Shown here piece after piece: positions 4,314 through 31,175 of a stretch of 31,175 nucleotides of DNA. This stretch comes from a virus (lineage: Duplodnaviria > Heunggongvirae > Uroviricota > Caudoviricetes). Every line of letters starts with the position of its first letter. The stretch's first letter is position 1. Made by a program: the position numbers and the translations under genes. The stretch is taken from positions 1 to 31,175 of IMG/VR virus record IMGVR_UViG_2565956711_000006; one strand, 5' to 3'. Below the pieces are notes generated by a model, which was not told the origin of the DNA, searched no databases, and saw only the letters and a program-made list of their open reading frames with translations.

Positions 4314-4438
4314 AAGACCTGATGGCAGATATCGCCGTCATATTCCACTGGCGGCCGGTAGAGATGGACGCCATGACGGTACAGGAAATACTGTTATGGC
4401 GTGATCAGGCGGCTGCGCGCAGTGGTGGAGATCACTAA
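3978..4438 (+). CDS. E': tail assembly chaperone gpE+E', predicted programmed -1 frameshift product
   Basis: After T6G (4238-4244) the -1 frame stays open to TAA 4436-4438, encoding ...EDLMADIAVIFHWRPVEMDAMTVQEILLWRDQAAARSGGDH, and ends 1 nt before the tape-measure ATG (4439); canonical chaperone frameshift arrangement. Confidence 0.7.
4238..4244 (+). other. slippery heptamer T TTT TTG for -1 ribosomal frameshift
   Basis: ttttttg read in E frame as ..D-F-L..; the -1 frame is open downstream. Confidence 0.7.
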
Positions 4439-28805: not shown

Positions 28806-28974
28806 GGCGGGCCACGTCTTTGGTTATTTTCTTAATCAGCTTTTTATCCCTGATCATAAACTCGCCGCTATTGGTGCGAATCATGAAGCCCGTTTGCATA
28901 TCTTTTAAATGGGTGTCCAGAATGTCGTTGCATTCACGCACCCGGTTTTCGTGGTTGGCTGTTTTCTGGCTCAT
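28771..28974 (-). CDS. hypothetical protein (67 aa) immediately downstream of cox
   Basis: ATG 28974 (MSQKTANHENRVRECNDILD...) with SD GAGG; occupies the position of P2 orf78. Confidence 0.5.
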   Translation of the reverse strand: MSQKTANHENRVRECNDILDTHLKDMQTGFMIRTNSGEFMIRDKKLIKKITKDVARHVDGELLKLGM

Positions 28975-28984
28975 CGCGATAACC

Positions 28985-29266
28985 TCAAAGACCGATCCAC
29001 AGCAACCAAGCGTCGCGCTGCTCTCTCGGACGGTTGTAGTAGGCGTCACGCATTGCGCGGTTGAACTCAGGAATATAGATCCAGTTCTCAGCACGGGCGC
29101 CCAGGCTGTCCGGGTTCTTCCACGGGATGATCGGCAACTTACCGTCTTCAATCATGCTCTTAACCGTGGCGGGCTTCTTACCGATTAACTCGGCAAATTT
29201 AGGGTATGGAACCGCGTCAACGGCATGACGCACTTCAATGAACCCCTCTAACTCTTTGTCTGTCAT
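28985..29266 (-). CDS. cox: Cox/Apl-type excisionase and early-promoter regulator
   Basis: Start at ATG 29266 (MTDKELEGF..) with SD GAGAGGTGA; ..VPYPKFAELIGKKPATVKSMIEDGKLPII..RDAWLLWIGL resembles remembered P2 Cox. Confidence 0.72.
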   Translation of the reverse strand: MTDKELEGFIEVRHAVDAVPYPKFAELIGKKPATVKSMIEDGKLPIIPWKNPDSLGARAENWIYIPEFNRAMRDAYYNRPREQRDAWLLWIGL

Positions 29267-29362
29267 AGCGTTATCACCTCTCATTGAAGATATGCCGGGA
29301 TTTTTAGCCACGCCCGGCGCGTGGTATTCTGGAGTTTCCACACAACCAGAAAGGAGATCTTT

Positions 29363-29599
29363 ATGTCTCAGAAAGAAGTACCTATCTACATTCCTGCTGA
29401 ACTTGAATACCTCGTTGCTAATGACCTGGCTTGCTTACGCTTCCACTACCACTTAGCTACACCGACAAAACTGCCCGAAGCAGGCGAGTTGTTTACTGGT
29501 TTAACCATTGAGCAAGCAAAAGACACCGTAACCTTCCTCCAGCAATACATTGCTAAAGCTGAACTTGCTTCTTCACTGGCCCCGAAACGGAGCCACTAG
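29363..29599 (+). CDS. hypothetical protein (78 aa) between cox and C, on the C/int strand
   Basis: ATG 29363 with strong SD AAGGAG 6 nt upstream; MSQKEVPIYIPAELEYLVANDLACLRFHYHL...; no family recognised. Confidence 0.55.
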   Translation: MSQKEVPIYIPAELEYLVANDLACLRFHYHLATPTKLPEAGELFTGLTIEQAKDTVTFLQQYIAKAELASSLAPKRSH

Positions 29600-29804
29600 T
29601 TTTAACCGTCCCTGCATAACGTCCATTCCGGAAATAACTACGGCGGAATTCAGCAACATGGATTCCGTCACTTCTGTTGCCCCGCTCAAGTCTTCCACTC
29701 ATTTGTGCTAATCTCCGCATTAGCGCTAGGCGCTTATTTCGGCTTGTAACTGCTTATATTGGCGGTTGCTCATGGTAGAGATTACCACCCTTAAGGAGAA
29801 TGTT

Positions 29805-30125
29805 ATGGTAGAGATCCCTACCCCGTCAAGCGGCGTGGGTGAAAAAATCAGAGCTATCAGGGATGCGGAGGGGTTAACAAGGCAGCAATTCTTTGAATTA
29901 ACTGGAATACCTGCTGGCACGCAGAAGTATTACGAGACAGGAAGAGTGGAGAGTATTGGTAGCGATATCTTGCTTAAGATCACTCAGCATTCACGTTTCG
30001 CAAAATACACGCTCTGGCTTATGACTGATAAGACCGCCCCTCAAGCTGGTCAAATCGCACCGGCCCTCGCACACATTGGGCCAGAGTCAACTGGATCAGA
30101 CCGCTCCGAGAAACAAACTGGTTAA
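29805..30125 (+). CDS. C: immunity repressor, P2 C family
   Basis: ATG 29805 with SD AAGGAGA; C-terminal ..FAKYTLWLMTDKTAPQAGQIAPALAHIGPE..KQTG matches remembered P2 C (..FTKYTLWFMTNQIAPESGQIAPALAHFG..KTG). Confidence 0.75.
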   Translation: MVEIPTPSSGVGEKIRAIRDAEGLTRQQFFELTGIPAGTQKYYETGRVESIGSDILLKITQHSRFAKYTLWLMTDKTAPQAGQIAPALAHIGPESTGSDRSEKQTG

Positions 30126-30194
30126 CTGTTTATAAACATTACATTTTCACTATCTGTTATCAGGATGGGGAAATAAACGCCGGAGGGCTTTCTT

Positions 30195-31175
30195 ATGTCG
30201 ATTAAGAAGCTCGAAGGTGGTCAATATGAAGTGGACGTATGGCCGCGCGGACGTAACGGAAAACGTATCCGCAGGCGATTTGAGAAGAAACAAGAGGCAG
30301 TTCTTTTTGAGCGTTATGTATTAGCCAACGCCGACAAAAAAGAATGGCTGGGCGCGAGCGTTGACCGCCGCACCTTAAGCGAGTTGTTAGATACCTGGTG
30401 GCTGCTATATGGACAGACTCAGGAAAATGGCGAGATTGAAAAGCGGCACCTGAATAAAACAATCAGGGCGCTTGGTGATCCAGCCGTTAACCGACTGAAC
30501 AAGCGAATGATTGCACAGCACCGAAGCCAACGGCTGGAAGACGGTATCAGCGCAGCAACGATCAACCGGGATATTTACCGTTTGTCCGGGATGTTCAGCA
30601 CGTTGATAAAGCTGGAAGAGTTCAGAAAGGAAAACCCCTGTAAGGGTCTGGAACCACTGAAAGAAGCGCCGCCAGCTATGACTTATCTCGCCAAATCAGA
30701 GATCAGCAAATTGCTGGATACTCTGACCGGCGACGATCGACGTGTAGCACTGCTATGCCTCAGCACTGGCGCACGCTGGGGTGAAGGGAGCACGCTGCGA
30801 GGTGAGCAGGTTAATCACGGGCGTGTGACGTTCCTTAAGACCAAAAATGGGAAAAAGCGCACGGTGCCGATATCGGAAGAACTGGAGAAAGAGATCAAGA
30901 CCAGCGACACCGGGCCACTGTTCAAAGTTGACTATGAAAACTTCTGCGAACGGCTCAGGCTGGTTAAGCCTGACTTACCACGCGGGCAGGCCACGCATGT
31001 GCTTAGACATACGTTCGCAAGCTGGTTCATGATGAACGGGGGGAACATTATTGCGTTACAGCAAATTCTGGGGCACGCCAGCATACAACAGACGATGGTT
31101 TACGCTCACCTTGCACCTGATTACCTGCAACACGCAGTAACGTTAAACCCTCTTGGCGGCGGGCTGATGGTGTGA
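30195..31175 (+). CDS. int: tyrosine integrase, P2 Int family
   Basis: 326 aa; MSIKKLEGGQYEVDVWPRGRNGKRIRRRF.. and C-terminal ..HVLRHTFASWFMMNGGNIIALQQILGHASIQQTMVYAHLAPDYL with the R..H-X-X-R..Y catalytic pattern; SD GGAGGG; stop is the last codon of the window. Confidence 0.92.
   Translation: MSIKKLEGGQYEVDVWPRGRNGKRIRRRFEKKQEAVLFERYVLANADKKEWLGASVDRRTLSELLDTWWLLYGQTQENGEIEKRHLNKTIRALGDPAVNRLNKRMIAQHRSQRLEDGISAATINRDIYRLSGMFSTLIKLEEFRKENPCKGLEPLKEAPPAMTYLAKSEISKLLDTLTGDDRRVALLCLSTGARWGEGSTLRGEQVNHGRVTFLKTKNGKKRTVPISEELEKEIKTSDTGPLFKVDYENFCERLRLVKPDLPRGQATHVLRHTFASWFMMNGGNIIALQQILGHASIQQTMVYAHLAPDYLQHAVTLNPLGGGLMV

Follow-up and report, generated by a model that had tools for sequence, protein, structure and literature searches.

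Immunity classes I-VII of the P2-like phages were reportedly defined by Karlsson et al. in 2006 and, to our knowledge, experimental mapping of operators has covered only three classes of the C repressor. The operators are spaced, centre to centre, by 22 bp in P2, by 26 bp in P2 Hy dis and by 34 bp in WPhi (PMC1904268). WPhi C binds a single repeat in vitro, while both repeats are needed for repression in vivo (PMC1904263). P2 C forms a symmetric dimer, which carries its recognition helices ~26 Å apart and superimposes on P22 c2, and its binding to the operator requires residue Tyr36, which is positioned to contact the DNA (PMC2995052). The cox-boxes of P2 are phased by 10-11 bp and overlap promoter Pc (PMC3936717). 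According to the GenBank record of P2, O1 resides between the -35 and -10 signals of the early promoter Pe and O2 follows the -10. In the WPhi record, by our own reading, GTCACCAATA occurs twice at a distance of 34 bp, with TGTCAA and a -10 falling within the annotated 37-bp promoter region.

The locus studied here, the lysis-lysogeny switch of a P2-like prophage, is part of a 31,175-bp stretch of DNA (hereafter "the window"), which is 99.6% identical to the chromosome of E. coli O19:H7 and to which the Salmonella phages SEN4 and SEN5 and the Enterobacter phage phiT5282H are close. It shares with P2 the order C ATG / Pe -35 / O1 / Pe -10 / O2 / Pc / cox, including the -35 signal, which the P2 record places at the equivalent position, as well as a homologous repressor fold, and its predicted Pe and candidate Pc would be convergent as in P2 (Table 1; naming of O1 and O2 follows the P2 convention). 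The int gene is located downstream of C, starting at 30195. Using phmmer, C aligned over residues 8-106 with the P2 C structure (2XCJ/2L49; E = 6e-26), and by this homology it is a genuine P2 C homologue from the family of ~100-aa HTH repressors. The identity of C in tblastn amounted to 48% with P2 C and to 59.6% with WPhi C. Outside phiT5282H, SEN4/SEN5 and the subclass relatives described below, no phage C protein was more than ~63% identical. Judged by these identities, C forms a separate immunity class.

Table 1. Features of the region between cox and C, in coordinates of the window.
Feature	Position	Strand	Remarks
O1, core GGTAGAGATCCCTACC	29807-29822		Promoter-spacer copy of the putative C operator
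O1 repeat unit	29805-29823		Opens with the C start codon
O2, core GGTAGAGATTACCACC	29774-29789		Second copy of the putative C operator
O2 repeat unit	29772-29790		Non-coding
Predicted Pe	29800-29829	minus, towards cox	TTGACG 29829-29824, 18-nt spacer, TAACAT 29805-29800
C immunity repressor, 106 aa	29805-30125	+	SD AAGGAG 29793-29798
cox, 93 aa	28985-29266	minus	Pfam PF10743 Phage_Cox, E = 2.9e-23
Candidate Cox-binding region and Pc	29732-29767	+	GCTTAT, GCTTGT, GCTTAT, GCGGTT in exact 10-bp phasing
Accessory segment, 438 bp	29267-29704		Between cox and switch core; indel boundaries ambiguous by a few bases
First ATTCCG, within TTCCGGAA	29625-29630	+	Unconserved: ATTTGG in L008, ATTCTT in L009, GTTCCT in L018
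Hairpin GGCGGAATTC-loop-GGATTCCGTC	29642-29669	+	Arms are the second and third ATTCCG; terminator-like in the scan

Two copies of ATGGTAGAGAT are present on the plus strand at 29772-29782 and 29805-29815, i.e. 33 bp apart, exactly where the original prediction had placed a direct repeat. We consider it probable, at roughly 0.85, that the units containing ATGGTAGAGAT constitute a bipartite operator at which the prophage C repressor shuts off Pe. By analogy with the operators of WPhi and P2, whose mode of action they would share, these repeats would represent the C operator at the Pe promoter of a hitherto uncharacterised P2-like immunity class. Throughout the window, no other exact direct repeat with a spacing of 12-40 bp reaches 11 nt, and shuffling the 150-bp core 20,000 times produced such a repeat on just 15-18 occasions (<0.1%). 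No further match to ATGGTAGAGAT with up to one mismatch was found in the entire 31,175-bp window (0.16 expected). The two units are alike over 19 nt (16/19 identical), where similarity ends; within the remainder of the 33-bp period only 2 of 14 nt match.

The repeats are placed at a consensus-like promoter. In a promoter scan of positions 28900-30300, the predicted Pe was the sole sigma-70-like site called; it matches the consensus at 9 of 12 positions, although one such match in a region of this kind equals the level obtained with shuffled sequence. TTGAC at the position of the Pe -35 was shared by 113 of 115 sequences from all immunity classes (114 fetched loci and the window), and in every relative a gap of 2 nt separates the end of O1 from an invariant GTCAA. 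Of the 18 bases that separate the predicted -35 and -10 signals, 16 belong to the O1 core, while O2 resides just downstream of the -10, at approximately +4 to +19 of the transcript predicted to start from Pe, so that the predicted -10 is flanked by one copy on either side at 33 bp spacing. This resembles WPhi, in which two direct repeats likewise flank the Pe -10 about three helical turns apart (34 bp in WPhi, 33 bp here) and O1 is found in the -35/-10 spacer beside the C start. The two phages differ in the repeat itself (GTCACCAATA in WPhi, GGTAGAGAT... here) and should therefore be heteroimmune. Moreover, the ATG of WPhi C follows the -35, whereas O1 here is part of the C coding sequence and holds its start codon, and the unit is longer (16-19 bp) and visibly dyad-symmetric. 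In P2, the repeats measure 8 bp and are 22 bp apart, as opposed to the 33-bp spacing and longer units of the window; in addition, its C protein is only 48% identical and its O2 displays no dyad symmetry in our scan.

These features suggest how the switch could operate. Since O1 occupies the spacer of Pe, which is read from the strand opposite to C, C bound there should exclude RNA polymerase. O2, three helical turns away, would be presented on the same face of the DNA and would cover the 5'-terminal ~20 nt of the Pe transcript together with the start of the convergent Pc transcript. Repression is expected to require occupation of both sites, as in P2 and WPhi, and binding of C to the two sites may be cooperative. 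Repression of Pe by C would in turn maintain lysogeny and confer immunity to superinfection. The ATG opening each unit would merely flank the binding site proper. In SEN4 and SEN5, a G-to-A change is found within O1 (GGTAGAAAT), and therefore at least this position should tolerate change.

To relate the repeats to their cognate protein, we compared 114 related loci (L001-L114). Loci sharing the C architecture fell into eight subclasses (A-H) with differing repeat sequences. In every subclass both copies carried the same subclass-specific sequence at a spacing of 32-34 bp. At the ten inner positions, the copies agreed on average at 7.3 positions within a phage and at 4.0 positions between phages, the latter value rising to 5.2 when the offset was optimised for every pair. 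An exact permutation test with six distinct classes yielded 1/720, or 2/720 with the offset optimised for every pair, values which overstate independence because the subclasses are phylogenetically related. Operator positions 4-6 are tracked by the residue in helix 3 of C that aligns with Tyr36 of P2 C: tyrosine is found with GGTAG, histidine with GGTATC, glutamine with GGTGTC and phenylalanine with GGTTAC. In contrast, Cox is 96-99% identical across the loci of subclasses A-D despite their differing repeats. Thus, the repeats follow C rather than Cox and were assigned to C. The related immunity regions, to which the original prediction had pointed for comparison, strongly support its reading of these repeats, as both copies change together and in step with the repressor.

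Other explanations for the repeats and the neighbouring motifs have to be weighed against this one. The pair could be a neutral small tandem duplication at the start of C without any regulatory role, an option already considered in the original prediction and compatible with copies that are direct, close and in frame. This alternative fails because the similarity is limited to the 19-nt unit rather than extending over the 33-bp period and because the copies co-evolve: subclass-specific changes appear in both of them together, whereas neutral copies would decay independently. Moreover, all fetched relatives whose operator is of the GGT-N10-ACC type have paired copies at this site, and we attach next to no probability to a neutral duplication. 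It is likewise conceivable that the ATG at 29772 serves as an alternative start, producing a C isoform longer by 11 residues, with the repeat being duplicated N-terminal coding sequence. The original prediction was right that both ATGs are in the frame of C; no stop codon intervenes and the ORF extends over 29766..30125. In accordance with such an isoform, the SEN5 record (L002, 1552-1905) annotates a 354-nt C gene from the equivalent ATG. However, the second ATG alone has an SD, as noticed before, which is positioned 6 nt upstream, and nothing comparable precedes the first. The upstream triplet is ACG in L010, L055, L067 and L071; a spacing of 34 bp puts the ATG of the L009 group out of frame, with a TAA following in that frame; and the L011/L068 group, in which C starts downstream of O1, lacks the upstream ATG altogether. 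All five substitutions that close relatives (L003/L004, L042, L048, L063) exhibit within 29783-29804 would be non-synonymous if this stretch were translated. RefSeq annotates a 321-nt gene in E. coli (730V1) and in phiT5282H. The 321-nt start of C is thus better supported than the 354-nt start, and a longer isoform is highly unlikely. The ATG at 29772 is a by-product of the repeat and part of the O2 flank, not a start codon; it is in frame with C because 33 is a multiple of 3. As the O1 copy doubles as C start codon, the operator determines the first six codons of C (codons 1-6), and the N-terminal peptide varies with it (MVEIPT, MVSNET, MVSYES, MVTTAT). Finally, operator half-sites for C or Cox could be provided by the ATTCCG/CGGAAT motifs (29625-29667), the second group of operator candidates in the original prediction. 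The hexamers are indeed present at 29625 (+), 29644 (-) and 29662 (+), i.e. three copies within 43 bp, two of them inverted. Yet, the hexamer is not enriched (18 found vs 19.2 expected in the whole window), the first copy is unconserved in the nearest relatives, and the second and third form a stable hairpin behind a conserved accessory gene, at a position where other cassettes hold hairpins with different stems. Moreover, the segment comprising all three motifs is missing from 16 of the fetched loci (phiT5282H and 15 others with the same C), in which the gap between cox and C measures 100 bp instead of 538 bp, C is 98-100% and Cox 96-98% identical, and the switch core is essentially the same. 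The segment is therefore no required part of the switch, and a role of these motifs as half-sites is most improbable. Hence, of the proposed operator candidates, the ATGGTAGAGAT repeats stand, strongly backed by the layout of the promoter and by covariation among relatives, whereas the ATTCCG motifs are part of an accessory segment that is dispensable.

Each unit of the proposed C operator can be read in two ways. The 16-mers are imperfect palindromes of the type GGT-N10-ACC, usually with a central AT, in which 7 of 8 pairs (O1) and 5 of 8 pairs (O2) are palindromic. GGTAG-N6-CTACC with up to one mismatch occurs in the whole window at the places of O1 and O2 only. We tentatively propose, at somewhat less than even odds, that what would be taken for a "half-site" is in fact a complete imperfect 16-bp palindrome GGTnnnnATnnnnACC bound by one symmetric C dimer, that this probably applies to several other P2-like classes as well, and that specificity is largely determined by the Tyr36-equivalent residue (Y/H/Q/F) reading positions 4-6 and their mirror positions. 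The operator would then consist of two dimer sites three helical turns apart. This would fit the symmetric P2 C dimer, which is built like palindrome binders (PMC2995052), and also the binding of WPhi C to a single repeat in vitro (PMC1904263). Alternatively, each repeat is a non-palindromic half-site that is specifically read by one monomer of the C dimer, and the dyad is incidental; this, too, is possible, although we would not rate its chances as high as even. P2-family operators have been published as non-palindromic direct repeats (PMC2995052), and in the window the GGTAGAGA half is identical between the copies at 8/8 positions as compared to 5/8 in the right halves. Consistent with half-sites, O2 is palindromic at just 5/8 pairs and the orientation of the asymmetry is always the same in both copies. 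On the other hand, nearly all of the 27 distinct sites collected share the GGT/ACC outer arms and the central AT, and their inner positions co-vary as mirror images: inner pairs were complementary in 58 of 108 cells, as compared to 39 +/- 4.3 following column shuffling (reached in 0/20,000 shuffles; 27 sites), and a stricter permutation at the level of groups, applied to this left/right covariation, yielded 142 of 5,040. Mirror covariation of the halves suggests one C dimer per unit. L062 carries a perfect 16-bp palindrome (GGTGTCAATTGACACC), and the sites of the L011/L068 group are the reverse complement of those in the window, while helix 3 of C is the same. When 40 operator clusters from all fetched C classes were considered, the mean best palindrome at both operator positions exceeded all 2,000 shuffles, whereas no dyad symmetry was found for P2 O2 in this palindrome scan. 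With symmetric outer arms separated by roughly one helical turn, each 16-bp unit is reminiscent of the operators of lambdoid HTH repressors such as 434 and P22 c2; in contrast to these, the symmetry observed here is imperfect (7/8 and 5/8), the units are direct copies with the same asymmetry, and two sites serve a single promoter pair rather than forming an array in the style of OR1-3.

A Dam site (GATC) marks the dyad centre of O1 (29813-29816) and is absent from O2. The same asymmetry distinguishes O1 from O2 in P2; the GATC is not kept in L063.

We also inspected the window for additional C sites. Allowing one mismatch, 11 matches to GGTAGAGAT were found in the whole window, as compared to 2.8 expected, including a direct pair at 4357-4365 and 4424-4432 (67 bp apart) in the tail E/E' region. 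This pair was rejected as secondary C sites, as both copies lack the ACC arm and phiT5282H, whose C is identical, has no homologous stretch. The extra GGTAGAGAT-like matches probably reflect chance or codon bias.

Upstream of O2, four phased GCTTAT-type repeats overlap a -10-like TATATT (29755-29760). The block they form is common to phages with the same Cox type but differing C operators, and by analogy with the cox-boxes of P2 these repeats are candidate Cox boxes over Pc. The promoter scan called no plus-strand promoter for Pc or for the accessory gene, and the candidates picked by hand are weak, namely TATATT at 29755 for Pc, which lacks a recognisable -35, and TGgTATTCT at 29322. With these promoter assignments, the transcripts from Pe and Pc would overlap by ~25-30 nt. 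At 29722-29734, TTATTT comes after a GC-rich dyad, AGCGC-TAG-GCGCT, whose fold is unexceptional (z = -0.6). The version in SEN5 differs but is likewise palindromic (TAGGCGC-AAA-GCGCCTA), and L007 has GCGCC-A-GGCGC.

The accessory segment that accounts for the wide gap between cox and C harbours, apart from the ATTCCG motifs, an ORF of 78 aa on the plus strand (29363-29599). In comparison with its homologue in a different immunity class, 33 codon differences are synonymous and 17 non-synonymous, and 43 of 64 base differences affect third codon positions. By this substitution pattern, the ORF is a real gene under purifying selection. Searches of Pfam and PHROGs with this and other cassette proteins provided no function, but only PHROGs of unknown function, and a scan of 29100-30000 against Rfam returned nothing at E <= 1. 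The hairpin formed by the second and third ATTCCG is located 43 nt past the stop codon of the 78-aa ORF. Its 11-bp stem is predicted to fold with -16.3 kcal/mol (z = -2.7) in the plus-strand RNA, as compared to -9.9 kcal/mol (z = +0.3) in the minus-strand RNA. The 3' tail ACUUCUGUUG has 5 U in 10 nt, i.e. a weak U-tract, and related cassettes show mixed strand preference. Analogous GGCGGA...TCCGCC hairpins are present in other cassettes. Conservation of the hairpin might be attributed to a minus-strand ORF (29702..29553) that contains it, but by eye the matching arms of L016 seem to use another frame, and it is the plus-strand 78-aa ORF that displays distinct signs of coding. Most likely, the hairpin acts as terminator or as a 3' end structure insulating the switch from the accessory gene.

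On the minus strand of the segment, a 49-aa ORF (29702..29553) with a good SD (GGAGA, 29716-29712) begins immediately past the Pe/Pc core. Homology links its initiation region CATttgtgctaatctcc to that of cox (CATgtgtcataatcccc) in phiT5282H, which lacks the cassette, and the N-terminus MVMKHEG recurs in other cassettes. A further hairpin (GCCGGG-N13-CCCGGC, 29294-29318) adjoins the cox start; it is kept in the cassette-bearing loci L002 and L004 and absent from phiT5282H, and its fold is unexceptional.

Among the 104 of 115 sequences with a recognisable cox (114 fetched loci and the window), the length of the cox-C gap is bimodal, ranging either from ~94 to 200 bp or from 529 to 1228 bp. Located in the early-operon leader, the long gaps contain differing small genes, often arranged as convergent plus/minus pairs. 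One cassette, shared by L009, L016, L072 and L114, encodes a protein of ~155-160 aa matching phrog_6315 of unknown function. In this regard, the 438-bp segment has the properties of a variable cassette with differing contents, similar to accessory-gene hotspots of P2-like phages, but its site is in the early-operon leader between Pe and cox. We did not find a cassette at this site described in the literature on P2-like phages that we examined.

Taken together, the analysis identifies the probable operator and the probable early promoter of a P2-like immunity class frequently encountered in E. coli, Salmonella and Enterobacter. It also settles the start of C, on which public annotations disagree (321 nt vs 354 nt). 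The early-operon leader from Pe to cox takes up cassettes of accessory genes, leaving the core of the switch undisturbed. The comparative set represents a natural series of matched repressor/operator variants, which makes the specificity determinants of P2 C-type repressors testable, and likewise the way in which direct repeats are recognised by a symmetric dimer. If each unit is indeed a palindrome, this would resolve the puzzle of a symmetric P2 C dimer acting on "non-palindromic direct repeats" and would provide a small natural recognition code, testable by swapping residues and sites.
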